A DNA stretch of 10,806 nucleotides, taken from IMG/VR virus record IMGVR_UViG_3300049255_000405; one strand, given 5' to 3'. Both the position numbers and the translations under genes were made by a program. Source of the stretch: a virus. Shown here piece by piece: positions 765-10,686 of the stretch (the first letter of the stretch is position 1; the number at the start of each line of letters is the position of its first letter). Under the pieces are notes generated by a model. That model saw only the letters and a list, made by a program, of their open reading frames with translations, did not search any database and was not told where the DNA came from.

Positions 765-1250
765 TCAGCTCAGCACAGCGATGGAGAACGAATTGGTCGC
801 TGCAGTGCGTATCAGCTTGTAAGTGTGGAAATTCCCGTCTGCCCAGTTGAAAGCTCGACGGAAAAGGCACTTGTTGGCGTTGAGGTCCTGGATCTTGATG
901 AAGTTCACGCTGTTGACGGTGTCGAAACCGATGGCTGCCGTGAACCCGGGACCCGCCATGCCGCTGATACCGATGTAGATATTCGTGTCGCCCGTGATGG
1001 GGTCTGGCACCGCCGCGTTGATGCGCACGCTGAAGGTCACGTCGAAATCCAGCGACGTGGCGTCGGGTAGTCCGGACGGGCTGATGTACACGGTCTTGGT
1101 ACCTGTGCCCGTCGTGCTGTAACGCAAGAAGTCGGTCACGCCCACGCTCAGGAGCTGGAGGGTGACCGCTCCCGGATTGTCCGCCGCCAGGACGAACGGC
1201 GTGAACTGCGCCACGTCGAGTCCGAGCTTGATTGACGCCGGCCCGCCGAC
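765..1250 (-). other. C-terminal domain of the giant protein with a third LamG-like motif (FNWADGNFHTYKLIRTAATNSFSIAVLS); candidate distal receptor-binding tip
   Basis: C-terminal residues about 2052-2080 match the same W...H-T-Y-K/R motif as copies 1 and 2. In fibre proteins the C-terminal domain is usually the receptor-binding tip (established general knowledge). Confidence 0.3.
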
Positions 1251-4200
1251 GAAGATTGAAGAGGGTGGACCGATGGTGGGACTGGTCAGGCGCAGCCTTC
1301 CGTCGCCATTATTTGACGCAAAGTTCGCCGGGATTCCCGGCGTTCCGTTGATACGAGACACGACCGCGCCGATGGTAGTGTCCGTCGCCTGGAACTGGAC
1401 GATAATCGGTGGGTTTGTATCGATCGCAATACTCAGATTATCGCCGGCCTCGATGGAGAATGGTTGAACATTGGCTCCGACCAAGTTGACCTGTTCGGGG
1501 AACGAGCCGCCTTCGTACGAGAGCGTGTGATCGGTCTGGTACTTCAGACCGCCCATGTGAAGGGTTTCGTCATCCGAAAACGGAGCGACGAGTCCAGCCT
1601 CTCCCGTCGTTATGGGGAAGAACTTCAGATTCTCGTACAGGACGCCGGACGGCGGGTCGATGTGAATGAAGATGGAGTTGCCGTGGACGCCCGGCTGAGT
1701 CAGGTGCAAGTTGTACGCGAGGTTGATGGCATCGGCGAGGACTGCCATCGTTCCTTCGTCGACAGCATCTGGGGCAGTCACCACATTCACGGTGTCATTC
1801 ATCACGTGGGCGGGAGCGTCCGAGTCGTTGACGACGGCCACTCTGTGCGCGTTGAAGTTGGCCTTGAGGGCGTTCGCCAAGGCGATACCGGTCGGCAAAT
1901 CCACCGCCGGCGGCAGGAGCACGGCGTCGAACTGGTCGTTGGACAAGTGCACGCGGTACTGCACGACGTGCTTGTTGAACGCCGCGAGGAGGTTGTTCAG
2001 GACAACGAGAGTTCCGGCGAGGAATGGCTGTACGACGAACGCCGTGCCGAGATTGTAGCCCTCGAGGTCCACGATGAGGTGGGAATCCTGGACCAGGATG
2101 TGCTGGTTGTAGTGGTTGGCGAGGTTGTTCGCGAAGGTGATTCCGGTGGGCAGGTCGACAGGCGGAGAATCGGAGTCGCTGTTGAAGCGGTCGATCCCTT
2201 TGTGCACGCCGGGCGCGTTCGGTCGATCGACGTTGACGATGTGCCGATTGAACTGAGTCTCGATGTCCGGCAGGAGGGCGAGAGCGCTCGGCAGGTCGAA
2301 GCAGGGCGGAGCTGTCGAAATGTCGACAGTGTCTGGCCGAACGTGCACTCCCACTTCCGACAAGTGGGCGTTGTAGAACGCCTGCAGGTCGTTGGACAGA
2401 GTGATGAGAGTCGGCAGATCCGATGCGGTGAGAGGCTCGAGGTTGATGATGTCGATGACGTTGTGAGGCCAGGTCCTTTCGACGTGCTCGACGAAGACCT
2501 GTTGGAAATTCTGCACCAGAGTGGCCAGGCTGGGTGCATCCGTCGCCGGCGGAGCCGTAATGGCGAACAGAGTGTCCGCGATGACGTGGACGCCGGCGGC
2601 CACGCGGTGAGCTTCGTAATTCGTGCGCACCTGATTCATCGCCGAGATGGCGTTGGGCAAGTTGAACATGCCCGGGATGGGAACGGTGTCTCCTGGATCG
2701 TTCGTCTGATGAACGCCTGGCGAAATGAGGTGATTGTTGAAGGTCGGAATGACCTGCGTGAAGACGATGGAAATGAGTTCCGTGATGGGCGTGTCGGACG
2801 ACGTCGCGTTGGTGGTGTCGTCCTCGAGGTCTGAGAGGAACCCACTCTCATCGACGAACTGAAGGGCGGGGACGGCCTCTTGCAGAGTCGCGGTCTTGCT
2901 CAGCCCACCACGCGACTGCAAATCCTGCGTCATGGGCACCGGAGGAGTGCCCTCGCCCAGGTTTGTGAAGGCGGCCAGAGCCGGGTTCGACAAGAAGTCG
3001 TCGGAAGGAGTCCCTCCCGAGTAAACCGTGAAACCTGCGTGCTCATGTGGCAGCTGAGTGTGCAGGTGCTCAGGAGAGACGACCGCGTTGGCCTGATTGA
3101 GCGTCTGGTGCGGCGGGATGAGGCGATTGGTCAGCGTCAGCTTGCCGATCGAATACTTGATCGGACCCCAAATGACGCGAGCGATTTCTTCGGGGTCGAA
3201 ACACCCGAACGCGATGCATTCCCTGTTGCCAGTAATCGGCTGCAGGAAACTCGCCGCAACCCCTGGAAGCTTGATAGCGTCGTAGTTGATGGAGATGACG
3301 GGGATGTTACCGCCGTCGAGAAAGACGGACACATTCCCTGACGGGTCACGCACCACACGATAAGTGTGGGACTGAGTCCAATCGACCTGAGAGATGTAGT
3401 ACGAGGCAAGAAGCGACGGATCTCCGCCCGAGTAGATACCGATGAATCTCCTGGAAGCCGCCGTAGGATCTGCGACCTTCAGGTCGCGGAATCCGCAGAC
3501 CGACCTCCAGTCGACCACGGACATCGCTGTACTCGGGTCGCCGTTGCCGACCGCCGTACCGCCAGACCCAAAAGTCATGGCTGGACCGACGACACCAGGG
3601 TGGAGGCTGTTGTACGAGAAATTCCCGAGCGAGATGTTATCGCCCAGGACTATGCAGATCCCGGCTGTCTTGTTCGTGAACAGGTCGACTGAGTGGATCT
3701 GCCCATCATTCCAGGCGAACGGGAAAGCTGCTTGCTGATCGAGAAAGCCGGTTGTCGAATTGTACGACAGCACATTGATATATGTGCCGCCGAATTGGTC
3801 TACCGCGTACTGCAGCTCTACATTCTTGCCGGACGTGCCTTCATCGACGTTGACGAGGACTCCAGCGAATTGCAAATTGGTCCCCGAGACGATCGGGTTC
3901 CCCGGAGTGAATGACACGACAGCGAGCCGGAAGTCGACCTTCCAGTCCACAGCGGGATTGAAGACGGGGCTCGTGTACAGAGTGTTGTTCAGAGTGTAGA
4001 CAAGGAAGTCGCTGGTGCTCGAGTCCGTGATCCGCATCGTGCGGCCGAGCATCTCGGACGCCTGGCTTCCAGAAGCCACCCAGTCTGGCGTGTCCTGGTC
4101 CGGGAAAGTCGCGCCAAACCAAGAGACTTTGGGTTCAGGATTGGAGTCGCGTCCGAAGTATGTGCCCAGGGCCAGACCCAACTTCTCCAGTGCGTTTCCG

Positions 4201-7007
4201 CCGAGAAGTCGGAGCTGAGAATTCGCGCCGAGCGTCTGATCCGTCAGAACGATGGCGCCGGAGCCGTTGTCCGCGGCGAGCGCGAAGCCTACCGCGGCGT
4301 TGATGACGGTCGAAACCTGCGCTGTGGTCGTCGCTGGTGAGGTGAAAGTGACGGTGATGGGCTCCGCCGAACCGATGCCAATAATGGCGGTGTCGTTGGT
4401 GGCGATGCCGAAAGGTTGCGTCGATGTCCCGGTGACAGTGGCCGCGCTCGGGGTGTCCTGCAGGAACAGAAGCCACGTCGAGAAGATGTCATCGTCGATG
4501 AAGACGCCGGCGCCCTTGTTGTCCAGGCTGAATGTGTAGAATCCAAGGCTCGCCGTGAACTCCACGGTGCTGGCGGCCACTCGAGTGAGGATAGGCTCGA
4601 GCCGCAAGAACCCGCGATACGCACCGGTTGTCATACCGAGCGCGGCAATGTCATCGAGCGGAGCGCTGGCAGTCGAATCCAGGACGAGCTTGTTGAGCGA
4701 CAGTCGCTCGAAACCCGACTGCCCAATAGTGATCCACGGGGCGGTGGGGTCGAGTTCCGGGAGGACCGTGGGCTCGTAGTCGACCGCTTTGTTGTCGCCA
4801 ATCTGGTCTTCGTCGATGGGCGTGACATCAACGCGGATGAAAGCCCACTTGCTGGTCGAAGTGCTTCGGCGCCACACAGCACCGAAGAACACTTGCGACA
4901 TCGGATTGAGCCGAATGTCGACGTCGGACGTTGCAGGAAGCTGCGCGTGGGTCACGCTTGCTGTGGGGACAACAGCGCCGCTGGTGTAGAGGGAAACGTT
5001 CCCCTCCGAGTCGCGGAAGATGCGGTAAGTCGCGTCGATGGACCAGTTGACTGCTCCACTGACCCAGCTGTCCTCGAACTCCGGGAAGCCAGAGTTGGTG
5101 AGAAACCCGATCTGCTGCACCAGACCCACCGAGTTGACGGTGTCGTTGTTGTAGTGGATGCCAGGAGCGGTCAGGTGCGTGTTGAGGTTGTCACGCAGCT
5201 GGTTGACCAGGGCGAGAGCGCTCGGGAGATCTGTCGAGTCCGGCGCCGTAATCTGGTCGGCCGAGTCAGCGAGCACGTGAATGTGACCGCCGCCGTAGGA
5301 CATGTGCTGATTCATCAGCACTTTGAGGCGGTTCGCGAGGATGATGAGAGAGGTGAGATCCGTCGCGTTGACGATATCCACCGTGTCTATAGTGTCGTTC
5401 GGCCGATGCACACCCGTAAGGATAAGGTGAGCGTCGAAAGCGGCCGACAGATCGTTCACCATTGCAATGGCGGACGAAAGATTATTGGCGTCGGTGAGGA
5501 GCAAGCCGACCAGAGCGACTTTTTGACCATCCGCGAGGCCGAAGCCGACGCCCGTGAAGGTCCCATCCGGAACGGTCTGCGACACGCTCACGCGGAAAGC
5601 TGCGGAGACTGTGCTGTCGAAAGTGAGGTCGATGGGATGCGTGTAGAAAGGAGGCTCGATTCCCGGACCTGGACTCGGGTTAGAGTCCACAATGGTGAGC
5701 CCGGTCCCTCCAGGAGCCAAGCTCATCGTGCCTTGACCCTCGAGCGTCCAGGGGTCTGTCGCCTGATCGGGCAGAGCCGTCGGGTCGTACCTAATCACGA
5801 CCTCGAACACTTCAGCGTTGAGGACCGGGAAGAAAACCCGGTTAGTTGGCACGTTCAGCAGCAGCGTGTTCGGATCGTTGAGGACAGCGCTGTAGCTGCG
5901 CTGGAGCATCTTGTACTTCCAGCCCGTGCGCAGCGGTTGATACGGAGACTTGATGGTGGGAAGCGCGTTCGTCGGGTCGACGAGGGTTGCTTTGGCCCGA
6001 TACGTGTAACCCGGCACGCCCATGAATCCGCGGTTGCCGGATTCGTTGAGGACGAACTCTGGAGAGTTGAGCCTCTGAAACTGCGTCGGTGGATTTCCGA
6101 GAAAATCGTAGTTGATGGTGACGGTGTCGGTCGGTTGTGGTGTGTTCGTCAGCACCACTGCACCGAGGAGACCGAAGACAGCGTCGACACTGGTCTCGAT
6201 GCCGTTGACGAAGACCTGCACATCTGCAGGGCTGTCAGCCACTTCCCCGATGCGCGGGTCCGAGAGAACCCAATTGAATGGACCGATGTTGACGCCCGAC
6301 TGGAAGGCGACTTGAGCGGATGGAACCGTGACCCTGTCGACCGTGTCTCTCTCGTAGTGGTAGACGCCGCTGTCACGGTGAAGTTCGTACGCTTGCCGGA
6401 GAGCGTTGGCCAGATAGAACGCGCTTGCCAGATTGCTCGCTGGCGGCAAGAGCACGACGTCTTGCGAGTCAGGATTGAGGTGAACGGGAGGAACGCCGCC
6501 GGTGAGCCCGATGTGGTTGAGGAACTTCGGCAGAAGCTCGTTGAGGAGAATGATCACACTCGACAAGTCCACCGAATTTTGCGCCAGAACCACGTCTGCC
6601 GGGTCGATGGTGCCGTGCACATATGGCGGCGCTCCCGTCCCGCCATTGACCACGTGGGCGTTGAACTCAGCCTTGATGTTGTTGGCCAAGGCAACGACGG
6701 CCGCAAGCGTCACCTGAGGATCCGAAGCGTCTAGCGTCGCGTTGCCAAGTGCCAGAGTCGTCGAATTCGGCACCGCCGCGATGGGAAAAGTGCCATCATT
6801 GCGTCCGTGCGGACTGCCGGAGATGGTGATCGTCTTGCCGATGAAGGTCAGGTCGAACGATGCAGTCGGGATCTGCACCAGGTTCGGACCGATGACCATG
6901 AGGTTGGAGCCTGTGAGCAGCGGGAGTGGCTGCTTGACGATCACACCCTTGTTGGTGAACAAGGTGCGGTCGCGCACAGACTGGAGGGCGGAGAGCGGGA
7001 CAGTCAT
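765..7007 (-). CDS. Giant 2080-aa mosaic fibre/adhesin-like protein: about 15 copies of a His-pair ~40-aa repeat in three blocks, plus three LamG/concanavalin-like lectin motifs; putative tail fibre or host-recognition protein
   Basis: Single uninterrupted 6.2-kb ORF, essentially impossible by chance. It has internally coherent protein-level repeats. It has no N-terminal signal peptide (MTVPLSALQSVRDRTLFTNKGVIVKQ...). Composition is rich in T/S/N/D/V/G and poor in K/R/C/W, as in beta-rich fibre proteins. Its start ATG overlaps the upstream gene's stop as TGATG. Confidence 0.88.
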   Translation of the reverse strand: MTVPLSALQSVRDRTLFTNKGVIVKQPLPLLTGSNLMVIGPNLVQIPTASFDLTFIGKTITISGSPHGRNDGTFPIAAVPNSTTLALGNATLDASDPQVTLAAVVALANNIKAEFNAHVVNGGTGAPPYVHGTIDPADVVLAQNSVDLSSVIILLNELLPKFLNHIGLTGGVPPVHLNPDSQDVVLLPPASNLASAFYLANALRQAYELHRDSGVYHYERDTVDRVTVPSAQVAFQSGVNIGPFNWVLSDPRIGEVADSPADVQVFVNGIETSVDAVFGLLGAVVLTNTPQPTDTVTINYDFLGNPPTQFQRLNSPEFVLNESGNRGFMGVPGYTYRAKATLVDPTNALPTIKSPYQPLRTGWKYKMLQRSYSAVLNDPNTLLLNVPTNRVFFPVLNAEVFEVVIRYDPTALPDQATDPWTLEGQGTMSLAPGGTGLTIVDSNPSPGPGIEPPFYTHPIDLTFDSTVSAAFRVSVSQTVPDGTFTGVGFGLADGQKVALVGLLLTDANNLSSAIAMVNDLSAAFDAHLILTGVHRPNDTIDTVDIVNATDLTSLIILANRLKVLMNQHMSYGGGHIHVLADSADQITAPDSTDLPSALALVNQLRDNLNTHLTAPGIHYNNDTVNSVGLVQQIGFLTNSGFPEFEDSWVSGAVNWSIDATYRIFRDSEGNVSLYTSGAVVPTASVTHAQLPATSDVDIRLNPMSQVFFGAVWRRSTSTSKWAFIRVDVTPIDEDQIGDNKAVDYEPTVLPELDPTAPWITIGQSGFERLSLNKLVLDSTASAPLDDIAALGMTTGAYRGFLRLEPILTRVAASTVEFTASLGFYTFSLDNKGAGVFIDDDIFSTWLLFLQDTPSAATVTGTSTQPFGIATNDTAIIGIGSAEPITVTFTSPATTTAQVSTVINAAVGFALAADNGSGAIVLTDQTLGANSQLRLLGGNALEKLGLALGTYFGRDSNPEPKVSWFGATFPDQDTPDWVASGSQASEMLGRTMRITDSSTSDFLVYTLNNTLYTSPVFNPAVDWKVDFRLAVVSFTPGNPIVSGTNLQFAGVLVNVDEGTSGKNVELQYAVDQFGGTYINVLSYNSTTGFLDQQAAFPFAWNDGQIHSVDLFTNKTAGICIVLGDNISLGNFSYNSLHPGVVGPAMTFGSGGTAVGNGDPSTAMSVVDWRSVCGFRDLKVADPTAASRRFIGIYSGGDPSLLASYYISQVDWTQSHTYRVVRDPSGNVSVFLDGGNIPVISINYDAIKLPGVAASFLQPITGNRECIAFGCFDPEEIARVIWGPIKYSIGKLTLTNRLIPPHQTLNQANAVVSPEHLHTQLPHEHAGFTVYSGGTPSDDFLSNPALAAFTNLGEGTPPVPMTQDLQSRGGLSKTATLQEAVPALQFVDESGFLSDLEDDTTNATSSDTPITELISIVFTQVIPTFNNHLISPGVHQTNDPGDTVPIPGMFNLPNAISAMNQVRTNYEAHRVAAGVHVIADTLFAITAPPATDAPSLATLVQNFQQVFVEHVERTWPHNVIDIINLEPLTASDLPTLITLSNDLQAFYNAHLSEVGVHVRPDTVDISTAPPCFDLPSALALLPDIETQFNRHIVNVDRPNAPGVHKGIDRFNSDSDSPPVDLPTGITFANNLANHYNQHILVQDSHLIVDLEGYNLGTAFVVQPFLAGTLVVLNNLLAAFNKHVVQYRVHLSNDQFDAVLLPPAVDLPTGIALANALKANFNAHRVAVVNDSDAPAHVMNDTVNVVTAPDAVDEGTMAVLADAINLAYNLHLTQPGVHGNSIFIHIDPPSGVLYENLKFFPITTGEAGLVAPFSDDETLHMGGLKYQTDHTLSYEGGSFPEQVNLVGANVQPFSIEAGDNLSIAIDTNPPIIVQFQATDTTIGAVVSRINGTPGIPANFASNNGDGRLRLTSPTIGPPSSIFVGGPASIKLGLDVAQFTPFVLAADNPGAVTLQLLSVGVTDFLRYSTTGTGTKTVYISPSGLPDATSLDFDVTFSVRINAAVPDPITGDTNIYIGISGMAGPGFTAAIGFDTVNSVNFIKIQDLNANKCLFRRAFNWADGNFHTYKLIRTAATNSFSIAVLS
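1668..2795 (-). repeat. Repeat block C of the giant protein (about residues 1405-1780): 9 tandem copies of the His-pair repeat
   Basis: TFNNHLISPGVHQTND; NYEAHRVAAGVHVIAD; FVEHVERTWPHNVID; DLPTLITLSNDLQAFYNAHLSEVGVHVRPD; DLPSALALLPDIETQFNRHIVNVDRPNAPGVHKGID; DLPTGITFANNLANHYNQHILVQDSHLIVD; VVLNNLLAAFNKHVVQYRVHLSND; DLPTGIALANALKANFNAHRVAVVNDSDAPAHVMND; AVLADAINLAYNLHLTQPGVHGNS. The spacing of the first His is 40-47 aa. Similarity is at protein level only, since the nucleotide sequences have diverged. Confidence 0.7.
3150..3700 (-). other. LamG/concanavalin-like lectin motif 2 in the giant protein (DWTQSHTYRVVRDPSGNVSVFLDGG); domain bounds approximate
   Basis: Residues about 1209-1233, nt about 3309..3383. 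This is the best match of the three to the LamG core W-H-x-x-x-V-x-R-D-x-x-G-x-V-S-x-F-L-D-G. Confidence 0.4.
4900..5150 (-). other. LamG/concanavalin-like lectin motif 1 in the giant protein (W-x-x-x-x-TYRIFRDSEGNVSLY); domain bounds approximate
   Basis: NWSIDATYRIFRDSEGNVSLYTSG (about residues 654-677) resembles the conserved core of laminin-G/ConA-like jelly-roll domains (W-h-h-v-x-v-x-x-D-x-x-G-x-x-x-L-Y-V-D-G). Confidence 0.35.
5148..5495 (-). repeat. Repeat block B of the giant protein (about residues 505-620): 3 copies of the His-pair repeat
   Basis: NLSSAIAMVNDLSAAFDAHLILTGVHRPND / DLTSLIILANRLKVLMNQHMSYGGGHIHVLAD / DLPSALALVNQLRDNLNTHLTAPGIHYNND. The first His falls at residues about 528, 568 and 611, a spacing of 40-44 aa. 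Confidence 0.65.
6318..6725 (-). repeat. Repeat block A of the giant protein (about residues 95-230): 3 copies of the His-pair repeat
   Basis: TLAAVVALANNIKAEFNAHVVNGGTGAPPYVHG / DLSSVIILLNELLPKFLNHIGLTGGVPPVHL / NLASAFYLANALRQAYELHRDSGVYHY. Coordinates are approximate (+/- 10 nt). Confidence 0.6.
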
Positions 7008-9049
7008 CAGGCGCTCACGATCTCGTTTCCGTAGAGGTCCTGCACTCCGTAGATATCAAGAGAGTATTGGGCTTTGGCCATTCCGATGACGTTGATGCTC
7101 AGAACTCTATCGTCGACCCACTCCGAGCCCTTCGTCAACAGTCCCGGTGGCCCAGTAATGACGATGTCCGCCGGCGTGAGTGCGGCCGGGCGGATGGGTT
7201 TAGAGAAGTAGACTTGCACGGCGTCCTGCTCCCAGCGAACACCATTGTTCGTATCGACTACGCCAATCTTCGGGATGGCCGACGCTACGAATGGAGGCGG
7301 CTCCACACCGATGAAGGGAGCCTGGATCATGAACCTCCTCGGCACGGTGCCGTTCCTCACGTCGATGAAGGAATACTGCGATTGCGCCTTCACCTGATAG
7401 GCCGCACCGTTGAGCATCCCGAGGTCGATCTGAAGAGTGTCGTAGAGTTTGGCCGAGTAGAGCGACACGCCAGCGGAATTGTGAACGCCCACGTTCACGT
7501 TGTGCGCCGTGAACGAGTTGGTCAGCCGCTCGAGAAGCAGAACGGCGGAGGGGAGGTCCGTCGCGTACCGCATCCGGACCAAGTTCGGATCCGGATAGTT
7601 GTGGTAGACAGTCGAGCTGGCGTGGTCGAGGTAGATGTCGCGCACGCGGTTGACTGCGGCGATGGCCGAAGCGAGACTGGCTACCGGGAATTCGCTCGGC
7701 AAGAAGTAGTTGATGAAGTCGGGTTGCACATGTCCCGCGCCGTACGGCGTCGTGATGTGCTGATTGTACGACTGCATCAGGTCGGTGACGGCCAGAACGA
7801 GAGCCTGGATGGAAGCGGTGACGTCGGCTCCGTCTGTAGGAACAGCGCTCGTTGGTCCAAGCACTGAAAGACTTTGGAGTGCCGGAAGCTGGATTCCCTG
7901 CGAGAATCGGAAACCCGCTTGTTGCGGGATCACCTGAGTGCCGACCACACGAGGCGGCGTCGCCAGAGGAAGAACTGAAATGCTGCCTGTGTAATCACCA
8001 GGATTCGTTGTACGAGCGAGATCTTCGCTTTGAATTTGCGCAGTCAGCTGGTACGACGGATTCGGGCTCGTCGCCGCGACCTCCACCTGGGCGAAATACG
8101 TGCAGGTATCCACCGCCGGGAACGCGAGGCCGTCCTGTGCCGAACTCCAATCGCGCACCGACTTGATGACCACGGGCGAACCGTTGGACGTCACCGTCCA
8201 GTTCGCGGTGTTGATGACCTCAGCATGGGCCATCGTGCAGCTGAAGAACACGTTGATGAAGGCGCGGTTGTACCCGCTGGGTGCGTCGGAAACGCTGTCG
8301 ACCCATGCATCGATGATCTGCGGCTGGCTGAGGACAGCGTATGTGTAAGGCTGCGGTGCCCGCAAAGTCAGTGACAGAGGGATAGTAGCCTGCACTTGAT
8401 TGTACGACCCGTCGACCACGTCCGCGAACGAGATGGTGTAGCTCGAGGCTGTGTCCATCGCCGGATTCAGCTCGAACCGAAGGACGTTGGCCGGGAACGA
8501 TCCATCCCACGGAATGCGGGTCATGGGTTGAGGTGTCCCTCCCATTGCCGCCTGGATGGTCGCTGTGCACGCTGGAGAACTCGGACCTACGGACCGGTCG
8601 AAATAGATGTCGACCATATTCCGGAGCGAGAGAAACGCTCCGATGGCCAGAGGAGGGTTCGGCACGTTTGCCCGAAAGTTTCCAGCACTCGGAGTCACAC
8701 TGTTGCCATCTGGACTCGTGACGCCGACGATGGAGAGCGCGTAGACCGTCTGGAATGTGAGCGACTGATTGAGCGTGAGGGCGACGGACCTATGGTCCGC
8801 GTCGTAGAAAGAGACGGTGACTACGACCGGGACGTAGTTCGGGACCGGGCCGCTGACGGCGAGCATCGAGTAAGCGCCCGGTTGAAGGGCGGACTCGTCA
8901 ACTTGGTCGTCGAACTGAACTCGAATAGTTCGCTGATCAAGCACGTGCGGTGTGAACCCGAACGGCAGAGGCGGAAACTGGCCGATACCGCCAAGAACGA
9001 TCTTGCCTAGCTGGCTACCGGCGCCTCCGAGCTGTCCAGTGAACGGCAT
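7007..9049 (-). CDS. 680-aa protein with four bacterial Ig-like (SbsA/Big_5-like) domains and three copies of the His-pair repeat; putative fibre/baseplate-associated structural protein
   Basis: Complete ORF. AAGGTG Shine-Dalgarno 4 nt upstream of the ATG. Only 11 nt after the stop of the collagen-like gene. Its stop overlaps the next start (TGATG). No signal peptide (MPFTGQLGGAGSQLGKIVLGG...). Confidence 0.85.
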   Translation of the reverse strand: MPFTGQLGGAGSQLGKIVLGGIGQFPPLPFGFTPHVLDQRTIRVQFDDQVDESALQPGAYSMLAVSGPVPNYVPVVVTVSFYDADHRSVALTLNQSLTFQTVYALSIVGVTSPDGNSVTPSAGNFRANVPNPPLAIGAFLSLRNMVDIYFDRSVGPSSPACTATIQAAMGGTPQPMTRIPWDGSFPANVLRFELNPAMDTASSYTISFADVVDGSYNQVQATIPLSLTLRAPQPYTYAVLSQPQIIDAWVDSVSDAPSGYNRAFINVFFSCTMAHAEVINTANWTVTSNGSPVVIKSVRDWSSAQDGLAFPAVDTCTYFAQVEVAATSPNPSYQLTAQIQSEDLARTTNPGDYTGSISVLPLATPPRVVGTQVIPQQAGFRFSQGIQLPALQSLSVLGPTSAVPTDGADVTASIQALVLAVTDLMQSYNQHITTPYGAGHVQPDFINYFLPSEFPVASLASAIAAVNRVRDIYLDHASSTVYHNYPDPNLVRMRYATDLPSAVLLLERLTNSFTAHNVNVGVHNSAGVSLYSAKLYDTLQIDLGMLNGAAYQVKAQSQYSFIDVRNGTVPRRFMIQAPFIGVEPPPFVASAIPKIGVVDTNNGVRWEQDAVQVYFSKPIRPAALTPADIVITGPPGLLTKGSEWVDDRVLSINVIGMAKAQYSLDIYGVQDLYGNEIVSA
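7010..7228 (-). other. C-terminal Ig-like domain of the 680-aa protein
   Basis: VQVYFSKPIRPAALTPADIVITGPPG...VLSINVIGMAKAQYSLDIYGVQDLYGNEI. The classic SbsA_Ig-type ending is ...V-x-D-L-x-G-N. Confidence 0.45.
7460..7828 (-). repeat. Three His-pair repeats in the 680-aa protein (residues about 408-530)
   Basis: DVTASIQALVLAVTDLMQSYNQHITTPYGAGHVQPD / FPVASLASAIAAVNRVRDIYLDHASSTVYHNYPD / DLPSAVLLLERLTNSFTAHNVNVGVHNSAG. This is the same family as in the giant protein, and the first-His spacing is 45 and 40 aa. Confidence 0.65.
8054..8923 (-). other. Three tandem Ig-like domains (SbsA_Ig/Big_5-like) in the 680-aa protein
   Basis: RVQFDDQVDESAL...VTVSFYDADHRSVALTLNQSLTFQTVYALSIVGVTSPDGNSV; VDIYFDRSV...WDGSFPANVLRFELNPAMDTASSYTISFADVVDGSYNQV; INVFFSCTMAHAEVINTANWTVTSNGSPVVIKSV...CTYFAQVEV. 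These follow the V-x-V-x-F-S-x-x-V ... T-Y-T-V-x-V ... D-x-x-G-N pattern of bacterial Ig-like domains. Confidence 0.45.
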
Positions 9050-9060: not shown

Positions 9061-10686
9061 CTAGAAGGTAGCGATCAGCATCCAGTCATTTTGCCCGTCG
9101 CTGACAAACATGTAGGAGGTGCGTGAACTGACGGGTGTGAACGAGAGCCCAGTCTGCCCGTCCATTGTGTCCGCCCCGGTTGGAACCAAGCCGACTGCAT
9201 TCGTCGAGGTCGCGATGGCCTTGACCACGATGGGAATGCCGTAGTAGAGAGCGGCCTCAGGGAAGAGGACGTTGACCGGCTGGTGCGTGGAATTCACGCG
9301 CACGATCTGTCCGGGCTCCGCAAGGACAGTGATCGCCGATTGCTCAGGCGTGGGGGAATAGCTGGTGTTGATGGGCCCGGTGACGCCTTGCGGTCCCTGA
9401 ATACCCGTAGCACCGATGGGCCCTTGAGGACCTGTGGCGCCTTGCGGTCCAGTCGGTCCGATGGCACCCTGAGGACCAATATCGCCGGTCGGGCCCTGTA
9501 CACCAGTGGCTCCCGGGGGCCCGCCAAAAGGACCAGTTGGTCCTTGATCTCCCTGCGGCCCCGTGGCACCCGCAGGTCCGGTCGGACCCGTCGCGCCCGT
9601 GAGACCCTGGTTTCCTTGGGGGCCCTGGACGCCGGTCGCGCCTTGCGGGCCGGTCGCCCCAACAGGGCCAGTTGGCCCGAGAGGGCCGGTGAATCCGATA
9701 GGCCCGGGAGTCCCTTCGATACCCTGGACGCCGGTCGCTCCTTGGGGTCCCGTCGCACCTTGCGGGCCGACTGCACCCGTAGGGCCGGGCGGACCACCGA
9801 ATGGGCCGGTGGGTCCTTGCGGACCAGCGGAGCCCGTTGGTCCGGCAGGCCCTGCAGGGCCTGTTGCACCAGCTTGACCGGTTCCCTCGAGCGCAATGGC
9901 TGAAAGGTTGCCCGCGTCGAACTGGATTTGGTTGCCACCTACGCTTCGCCACTGGACTTTGACGGTATACGTCCCGGCGGGAAGTTGAGTGCTAACAAAG
10001 TTGTTCGAGACAATTGCGGCTTCGTTAGTGTTCACCTCATTGCGCCGAATCTCCGAGCTAAGTTGCCCGTCGATGTAGAGAATGATGCCGATGGACTCCG
10101 TGGTGCTAATCTGCTCCCACTGGATATCGGTTTGAGCGTAAATAGCGCAAGTTGCGCTGGTCGTAATAGTCGTGCCGAGCCCAGGAACATCGACAAACGA
10201 CGTCGACGTAGTTGTGGCGGGCCCGACTGCAGATGCGTAGGCAGAATCGATCGGGTTGTTCGGACCTGCAGGCCCTGTAGCGCCATCAGCCCCGGTGGCT
10301 CCCGGGATACCCTGCGGCCCCTGGATTCCCTGCGGACCCTGAGGGCCAGTGGAGCCCTGCGGACCGATTGCCCCGGTTGGTCCCTGGACACCGGTGGGCC
10401 CGATGGTGCCCTCGACGAAATTGGTCAGAGCGCCAGCAGTCAAAACGTGAGTGACAGTCGCTCCCGGGAGGTGCTGAGCCGGAGGCGTGTTCTCGATGCC
10501 GCGGATGACAGAGAAGACGCTGCCCTGAATACCCGTCACCAGCATCAACTCGTTGTCGATGCGGATGCGGAACTGCGGCGCCGGCGGGAACTGGGTGACG
10601 TTCGTCGTCTGGACGTAGTTCGTCACTGCGTCCAGCGGCAGCTGCAGAGTCCCCTGGGCTGTGTTGGCAAATTGCTCTTGGGCCAT
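9061..10686 (-). CDS. Collagen-like triple-helix repeat fibre protein, 541 aa. Layout: N-terminal domain, G-X-Y tract 1, globular beta-rich domain, G-X-Y tract 2, C-terminal domain
   Basis: Long runs of uninterrupted Gly-X-Y triplets rich in P/Q/T/A ([47 protein letters not shown] and a second tract of about 170 aa). Complete ORF with ATG. No signal peptide. Confidence 0.9.
9373..9885 (-). repeat. Collagen-like G-X-Y tract 2 (about 57 triplets, residues about 268-438) with two one-residue register 'stutters' ([11 protein letters not shown])
   Basis: [43 protein letters not shown]...[32 protein letters not shown]...[11 protein letters not shown]. The GPF-GGP-PG motif occurs twice, about 91 residues apart, as part of an internal duplication. 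Each occurrence shifts the Gly register by one residue. Confidence 0.85.
9886..10260 (-). other. Globular beta-rich domain between the collagen tracts (possibly C1q/TNF-like, as in BclA-type collagen-like proteins)
   Basis: [125 protein letters not shown]. It shows alternating hydrophobic beta-strand character. Its position, interrupting a collagen stalk, is unusual. Confidence 0.35.
10261..10404 (-). repeat. Collagen-like G-X-Y tract 1 (about 16 triplets, residues about 95-142)
   Basis: [50 protein letters not shown]. Confidence 0.85.

Follow-up and report, generated by a model that had tools for sequence, protein, structure and literature searches.

A conserved His/His/Asp repeat in large virion proteins of uncultivated phages

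The window analysed here is a stretch of viral DNA of 10,806 nucleotides (IMG/VR record IMGVR_UViG_3300049255_000405), which codes on the minus strand throughout and contains three genes, referred to in the order of transcription as C, B and A. The element under study is a repeat of about 41 residues found in the proteins A and B. Each of its 18 copies, or units, comprises a helix ending in His, a second His after 6-12 further residues and, three residues beyond it, an Asp. The units come in groups of three (triplets), and the repeat is an ancient, strongly constrained and widely distributed insertion domain of phage virion proteins. The genes and the blocks of units are listed in Table 1.

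Table 1 Genes and repeat blocks of the window. Residue numbers refer to the protein concerned.
Feature	Position	Strand	Description
Gene C	9061-10686	minus	541 aa; collagen-like open reading frame; none of the His repeats
Gene B	7007-9049	minus	680 aa; N-terminal Big_5 Ig-like domain(s) and one triplet
Gene A	765-7007	minus	2080 aa; giant virion protein; 15 units, that is five triplets
Triplet of B	about 7430-7819	minus	about residues 411-540; first His at 431, 476, 516
Triplet 1 of A	about 6315-6716	minus	about residues 98-230; first His at 118, 165, 210
Triplet 2 of A	about 5112-5495	minus	residues 505-627; first His at 527, 568, 611; insertion in a beta-hairpin
Nine-unit array of A	about 1638-2792	minus	about residues 1407-1790; three triplets; first His at 1426, 1467, 1508, 1548, 1589, 1636, 1680, 1721, 1768
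Inserted segment around the nine-unit array	1653-2909	minus	A 1367-1785, relative to a repeat-less homologue

The repeat and its sequence constraint

Units were located with the simple pattern [LIVMFA]x3[LIVMF]x3[FYLMV]xxH x5-13 H, which matches exactly 18 places, 15 of them in A (blocks of three, three and nine) and three in B. In 2000 shuffles of A and B the same pattern produced 0.29 matches on average and four at most. A preliminary description of this DNA had proposed the same 18 copies in the same blocks, over an extent of 1668-7828 and with successive first His 40-48 residues apart; the mapped units agree with this extent and the pattern matches return this spacing. It had further spoken of two adjacent giant genes, which is apt for A but not for B, a protein of only 680 residues.

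In the alignment of the 18 units the mean pairwise identity is 28%, and the only invariant columns are those of the two His and the Asp, as expected from the earlier remark that a His pair recurs in every unit. The loop between the two His varies in length and the His-x3-Asp spacing is fixed. The His residues of A are concentrated in these segments, with 32 of the 47 falling between the first His of a unit and the position 16 residues past it. At the helix cores, the units are 30% identical in amino acids and 47% identical in nucleotides, and a DNA repeat search of the window found matches of at best 61-71% over 38 nucleotides. Because the cores have diverged to 47% in DNA and repeat matches reach only these values, the array is, on sequence grounds, old, in keeping with the conservation at the protein level only that had been pointed out before. 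A recent DNA duplication as the origin of the array is ruled out by the same nucleotide identity.

The repeat had not been recognised as a member of any named family, and our searches bear this out. Pfam scans of A and B at E ≤ 1 returned only a sub-threshold Flagellin_IN match outside the repeats and Big_5 at the N-terminus of B. Scans of both proteins against NCBIfam and the PHROGs gave no meaningful match over the repeats, and Pfam scans of 10 small and 92 further repeat-bearing proteins revealed no common family over the repeat. PDB sequences, searched with A, with a profile of the units and with a profile of the triplet, yielded chance matches only (a xylanase at E 0.29, a helicase at E 0.75). 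When the profile built from the 18 units was run against 1.84 billion representative proteins, 972 protein clusters were matched at E ≤ 0.001, 76 of them at E ≤ 1e-30. A homologue search with an alignment of 83 units returned nothing, its word index seeming unsuited to queries of 43 residues. The PHROG family phrog_6994 ('head fiber protein') is matched faintly by small three-unit relatives, at E 4.5e-6 to 4e-3 but in no individual stretch that passes, and is matched by neither A nor B.

Structural comparison with Foldseek relied on the AlphaFold2 models presented below. The nine-unit model compared with the PDB reached template modelling (TM) scores of about 0.1, for an elongated multi-domain query that is poorly suited to such a search; no BFVD entry matched the triplet at E ≤ 0.001. 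The structural neighbours included the BARA domain of Vps30 and Beclin 1, with scores of 5.8 and 5.4, respectively. Against Pfam, NCBIfam, the PHROGs, PDB sequences and BFVD, the repeat holds as undescribed. We regard it as a new domain family within a known class of phage-virion accessory modules, and the fold of the domain, as judged from the models, is probably new.

Distribution and insertion of the units

We found about 105 full-length orthologues of A, at 33-89% identity, all annotated as 'hypothetical' and located on contigs of 240-475 kb. A search of IMG/VR with an alignment of A yielded 32 loci on viral contigs of up to 452 kb, and a search of IMG/VR with B alone gave no match. Using tblastn, the array and near-consensus relatives were compared with 50,697 phage genomes, which resulted in a single match, to a metagenome-assembled 77-kb phage; the repeat was not found in the cultured phage genomes among these records. 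Within the GTDB species genomes, matches were restricted to two contigs of 2.1 and 3.5 kb (DATBQC010000365.1 and DATBQC010000623.1) of one Methylobacter metagenome-assembled genome, which represent either a hint at the host or a binning artefact and are too little to name a host.

Across the alignment of the 105 orthologues, both His are kept wherever a unit is present, with rare exceptions, and the Asp is nearly as constant, which speaks for strong selection on the repeat. A loss of the His pair in orthologues, which the preliminary description would have taken as an argument against its functional importance, was hence not observed. The main exception is a change of the second His to Tyr, present in 10 of 77 sequences at position 1602. 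Among 773 units of proteins unrelated to A, the two His and the Asp are conserved at 100%, 100% and 99%, as they are in a set of 1438 units, the figures of 100% being partly circular in that the profile rewards His, which does not apply to the orthologue columns. A profile of the 1438 and 773 units together, which also provides the numbering used below, corresponds to the family consensus A-T-D-L-x-[ST]-A-I-x-L-A-N-[ED]-L-K-x-x-[YF]-N-A-H-[RL]-x-x-x-G-V-H-x-x-x-D-x-x-N-x-V-T-A-P-D-A-T.

The repeat had been presented as a feature shared by two adjacent genes. Both genes do carry units, but they are in no way special in this, given that the unit profile matches phage-type proteins in 972 clusters. 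In the huge phages that we examined, large virion proteins are almost devoid of annotation, and the repeat provides a sharp signature in about 1000 protein clusters, comprising fibre, baseplate, sheath and capsid-adjacent proteins. This signature could seed a new family entry and help to mark virion modules in metagenomic phage genomes.

The relation of the units to the rest of A became apparent from homologues that lack them. IMG/VR contains 14 loci whose homologues of A are more distant, being 23-41% identical in core segments, and have no detectable units. BLASTP aligned A with one repeat-less homologue, L026 (1822 residues), over four segments, pairing A 242-504 with 619-882, A 628-839 with 884-1104, A 1207-1366 with 1426-1589 and A 1786-1854 with 1627-1692. 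Triplet 2, with its 123 residues, corresponds to a single residue between two strands in L026, and the 419 residues of A that hold the nine-unit array correspond to 37 residues. Since triplet 2 replaces one residue in a hairpin of L026, its two ends would be adjacent, in agreement with the two strands that flank the triplet in the model of A 499-640. Read from these alignments, the triplets must be insertions with their ends side by side. A rod-like spacer within a shaft is ruled out by the adjacent ends of each triplet.

The number of units varies among close relatives. In 18 orthologous IMG/VR loci, the A-type proteins contain 6-27 units, with most of the variation in the C-terminal array. 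The two N-terminal triplets stand at constant positions in these loci, that of triplet 1 being occupied in 18 of 18, with all three units detected in 16. B-type proteins of other loci have 1-8 detected units. The C-terminal array region is a cassette hot spot. In the orthologue P0086 (about 1500-1965) it contains one C-terminal triplet followed by TIG domains (four matched stretches, the best at 1891-1965), and in P0050 (1736-2064) a Laminin_G_3 domain (E 8e-19) is placed between two units of the last triplet as a lineage-specific insert. Elsewhere the repeat co-occurs with Phage_sheath_1C (two proteins), Baseplate_J (one), Big_5 (four) and DUF2586 (one).

Small proteins of 175-178 residues, which consist of little more than one triplet, are encoded in the head-gene blocks of two unrelated phage contigs (7782-8318 of MW202476.1 and 8001-8528 of locus L040). 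In L040 the small gene comes after a capsid gene (SU10_MCP in Pfam), with an HNH gene between the two. In MW202476.1 it is located a few unannotated genes past the portal gene, and from the gene order we infer that it follows the capsid gene and lies in the head module. Genes for head decoration proteins usually sit in such positions.

In its behaviour the repeat belongs to the accessory class of decoration and insertion modules, being autonomous, dispensable in homologues and variable in copy number among close orthologues. It shares these traits with Ig-like accessory domains (Big_2, Big_5, TIG, FN3; Hoc-type), which are likewise small autonomous modules that some orthologues have and others lack, in differing numbers of copies. 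The two kinds also meet in the same proteins, as B itself pairs Big_5 with a triplet and TIG domains occupy the array region of P0086. Ig-like domains are beta-sandwiches, whereas the repeat is predicted to form three helices of 19 residues with loops, marked by the invariant His/His/Asp; we know of no such signature in Ig-like decorations. A second likeness is to phage head fibres, which are also helical, three-fold surface appendages made of repeated helix-turn elements (PMC6542822, PMC7602432), and three-unit relatives of the repeat are encoded beside a capsid gene and match phrog_6994 weakly (E 4.5e-6). We found no sequence or fold similarity to the solved stem of the phi29 gp8.5-type head fibre (3QC7; phrog_6994).

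The triplet and its proposed His/Asp cluster

Several observations bear on how many units make up one module. Of 131 proteins unrelated to A, 77 have a unit count divisible by three (binomial p = 2e-9); the commonest block size is three. None of the 131 has fewer than three units, although a profile search is unlikely to retrieve proteins with one or two. AlphaFold2 modelled the segment A 499-640, with 40 orthologue sequences, at a predicted local distance difference test (pLDDT) score of 96.4 and a predicted TM score (pTM) of 0.89. The model comprises a strand (2-7), three helices (12-30, 53-71 and 96-114) and a closing strand (132-137), with 17-24 non-helical residues after each helix, the third included. 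The nine-unit block was modelled with the same helix-plus-loop units (pLDDT 89.8, pTM 0.81). AlphaFold2 places a helix where the preliminary description had suspected one, in the amphipathic front half of the unit, and the first His is the second-last residue of each predicted helix. A helix with a return arm, assembled into a compact triplet, is predicted with high confidence. As unit counts favour multiples of three and the monomer model is compact and confident, the working module is most likely formed by three consecutive units of one chain that close upon themselves. The 18 units carry no signature of their position within the triplet (1.02 BLOSUM per column for the same position versus 1.03 for different positions, p = 0.58), which gives no visible sign that duplication proceeded by whole triplets.

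A different arrangement is suggested by known fibres, and the preliminary description had envisaged it in having the His pairs converge on the axis of a homotrimer. The units of three chains would then be aligned in a fibre shaft, with metal bound by His pairs on the threefold axis in the manner of the HxH motifs of T4 gp37. Phage fibres are usually homotrimers, and the tip of the T4 gp37 fibre coordinates seven iron ions through paired His (PMC11705849). Moreover, the collagen-like and hence trimer-forming gene C lies directly upstream, and our predictions are of monomers. However, unit counts within one chain favour multiples of three, a single triplet gives a compact and very confident model as a monomer, and a triplet that replaces one hairpin residue with its ends adjacent is a poor fit to a unit along a shaft. 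The same triplet is also found inside tail-sheath and Baseplate_J proteins, which are not known to be trimeric fibres. No HxH motif is present, and the predicted structure is helical, unlike the fold of the T4 gp37 tip. The evidence points instead to a triplet within one chain, and we consider the homotrimer axis improbable and the reading least compatible with the data.

The comparison with gp37 is nevertheless informative. Repeats of the gp37 type, known also from lambda, pyocin and marine phage fibres, resemble the present repeat in having recurrent, strictly conserved His pairs within a tail or fibre protein. The difference in geometry that had been anticipated is evident, since HxH contrasts with H-x6-12-H-x3-D in all 18 units; in addition, gp37 uses three chains and the predicted helix-plus-loop triplet a threefold set from one chain. 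Profile searches of Pfam and the PDB and the structure comparison gave no sequence or fold match between the two. If the triplet model holds, the octahedral His6 site of gp37 (PMC11705849) would have its equivalent in six His placed around the pseudo-threefold axis of the triplet.

In the explanation that we prefer, each unit would consist of an amphipathic helix of about 19 residues with the heptad core L4, A7, A11, L14, Y/F18 and H21 (profile numbering), followed by a non-helical return arm of about 22 residues (G-V-H28-x3-D32-x2-N35-x-V...T-A-P-D-A-T-D) that returns the chain to where the next unit begins. The conserved hydrophobic positions of the helix, together with H21, are spaced 3-4-3-4-3, which would put the first His in a core position of the last helix turn. 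Three successive units of one chain would close into a parallel three-helix bundle with pseudo-threefold symmetry, in effect the trimeric coiled coil of phage fibres reproduced by one chain. Parallel helices are suggested by the return loop after every helix, the adjacent ends, the conservation of the same residues in all units and the missing position signature. With the chain entering and leaving at the same end, the module could be plugged into a hairpin or linker of its host protein, and the three H21 would lie in the final core layer, at the tip opposite the site of insertion. There, the three H21, three H28 and three D32 would make up a cluster of six His and three Asp. This cluster would staple the units to one another, with a bound metal ion or a network of His-Asp hydrogen bonds as the most likely means, and may also serve as a contact surface.

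The role best supported for such a domain would be that of an accessory, surface-exposed decoration module of virion proteins, with the His/Asp cluster holding its three units at the tip. The phages concerned are uncultivated, contractile-tailed and often huge. Beyond the predicted helices and arms, we infer a parallel topology, a clustering of the His residues, metal binding and a part in adsorption or stability. To the explanation as a whole, an intra-chain triplet bundle stapled by His/Asp and acting as accessory decoration, we assign a probability of about 0.55. A domain in which one chain mimics a trimeric coiled coil and yet fits into a hairpin as an insert would be an unusual construction, with no close match in the PDB or BFVD. 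De novo three-stranded coiled coils with a His3 site and the single-chain bundle gp41-5 are designed proteins, and the return connections predicted here are extended arms, not helices.

A number of points weigh against this explanation. The unit count is not a multiple of three in 41% of the 131 unrelated proteins, which may be due to degenerate units that were missed. Mean-field direct coupling analysis of 262 triplets favoured in-register pairs only weakly (such as 11-11, 7-7, 12-10 and 4-6; p = 0.01, versus 0.12 for an antiparallel arrangement), and the signal is noisy and dominated by gap and neighbour artefacts, with several high-ranking pairs fitting antiparallel helices. The AlphaFold2 models were read as secondary-structure elements and scores, and the side-chain positions of His and Asp, the helix directions and the strand pairing are deduced indirectly. 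Being monomeric and metal-free, the models are also compatible with a role of the triplet in assembly between chains. Tyr as the usual substitute of the second His fits packing or a hydrogen bond at least as well as metal ligation, and the circularity described above reduces the weight of the 100% figures. Finally, in the 454-residue protein P0143 full units alternate with short ones that keep the first His and lack the second His and the return arm, a pattern that a strict three-unit bundle does not explain and that hints at a variant architecture.

That the His/Asp cluster binds metal is plausible by analogy, as Zn or Co is reported to be bound by coiled coils of three strands that contain a His3 layer (PMC13262294). 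A more specific proposition, which we put forward tentatively as a possibility, sees in the triplet a new metalloprotein fold, namely a pseudo-threefold bundle of one chain whose six His and three Asp would hold a metal at the exposed tip. If it were true, the triplet would correspond, with one chain in place of three, to the His6 iron sites in trimeric phage fibres, and five sites in A, one in B and about 1000 clusters would amount to a large unrecognised class of metal sites on the virions of uncultivated and often huge phages, with a bearing on the view that virions sequester trace metals and make use of them. A metal-binding cluster would likewise be a second, unrelated solution besides the HxH iron sites of these fibres. 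The domain of about 125 residues should express alone, which makes the question of the metal easy to test. Should no metal be bound, the triplet would still be a tidy accessory decoration domain, located in the same region as the Ig-like domains of related proteins. An enzymatic 2-His-1-carboxylate site is ruled out by the presence of 18 copies of a 41-residue unit and by the dispensability of the domain in homologues.

The substitution by Tyr, the commonest replacement of the second His in orthologues, would be natural if His, His and Asp were fold determinants without any cofactor, acting as a helix C-cap or through buried His-Asp hydrogen bonds and stacking, in a domain that serves as an inert spacer or stabiliser. 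The conserved Asn at heptad position b and the small Ala residues of the core would fit such a tightly packed, self-sufficient fold, and the searches showed no similarity to known metalloprotein families. Yet three polar residues are near-invariant over about 2200 units at about 30% identity, and polar residues as constant as these are typically found where a ligand or cofactor is bound and not where side chains merely pack. In the proposed topology they would, furthermore, lie at the exposed distal tip, and the loop between the two His varies from 6 to 12 residues next to a fixed His-x3-Asp spacing. On balance, we hold a cofactor-free cluster to be rather unlikely.

The same tip location would suit a working site, either a pH-sensitive latch, the bundle being loosened by protonation of the His in the course of infection, or a recognition site for host surface ligands, which would be contacted directly or via a metal. 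The copy-number-variable, accessory behaviour of the triplets is that of adhesion-type decoration domains, Ig-like TIG or lectin-like LamG domains occupy the array region in some orthologues, and head fibres and Hoc-type decorations are thought to aid attachment to cells (PMC7602432). Residues that never change are, however, hard to reconcile with adhesion, since adhesion modules normally differ in their binding sites from one host range to another, and we regard a working site of either type as very unlikely.

Genomic setting and further features of the window

The stop codon of B shares one base with the start codon of A (UGAUG, 7005-7009, minus strand). Overlaps of stop and start codons are typical of translationally coupled genes, and this one suggests such coupling of the two repeat-bearing genes. 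Gene C, upstream of both, has blocks of Gly-X-Y at about residues 90-145 and 266-440 that flank a non-collagen middle part; it matches many PHROG tail-fibre families (best 2.9e-57) as well as Pfam Collagen (7e-31).

In an orthologous locus, L004, the genes lie on one strand and a protein of 1148 residues with Baseplate_J is encoded upstream, most other genes having no Pfam match and genes for HNH and GIY-YIG homing endonucleases being interspersed. Taken together, this Baseplate_J neighbour, the homing endonucleases and the IMG/VR viral contigs of up to 452 kb identify the setting as the baseplate/fibre module of a contractile-tailed phage that is uncultivated and very large. The HNH/endonuclease VII-type and GIY-YIG genes stand between structural genes at 4232-4783 and 18106-18843 in L004 and at 6645-7502 and 22758-23678 in another orthologous locus, L005. 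Their positions differ between orthologous genomes, and the window has none between C, B and A.

Two long open reading frames on the plus strand, at 1464-2834 (456 aa) and 4416-6734 (772 aa), lie opposite gene A. They are rich in Arg, Val and Asp, an odd composition, and are probably artefacts, by-products of coding rich in guanine and cytosine (59-65%) on the minus strand.

The non-repeat core of A contains the motif W..(H)TYR.(V)RD..G..S.Y..G three times, at about residues 655-675, 1207-1235 and 2055-2075 (window about 4983-5045, 3303-3389 and 783-845). Sandwich modules of the concanavalin or LamG type were considered for the core on account of the motif W..HTYR.VRD..G and were dropped, as Pfam gave no confirmation for A itself. 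The Flagellin_IN match mentioned above lies at A 1864-1909 (window 1281-1418, minus strand; E 0.06, sub-threshold). In the orthologue P0029 the same family is matched above threshold at 877-920, in two stretches, and A seems to hold two such small modules outside the repeats.

Directly after the last unit of the nine-unit array, at about A 1773-1797 (window 1617-1691, minus strand), the sequence reads GVHGNSIFIHIDPPSGVLYENLKFF and is among the best-conserved stretches of the orthologue consensus. This segment is partly kept in the repeat-less homologue L026 (PDDVLYNSLQ, from residue 1627), and it looks like an anchor for the attached array.

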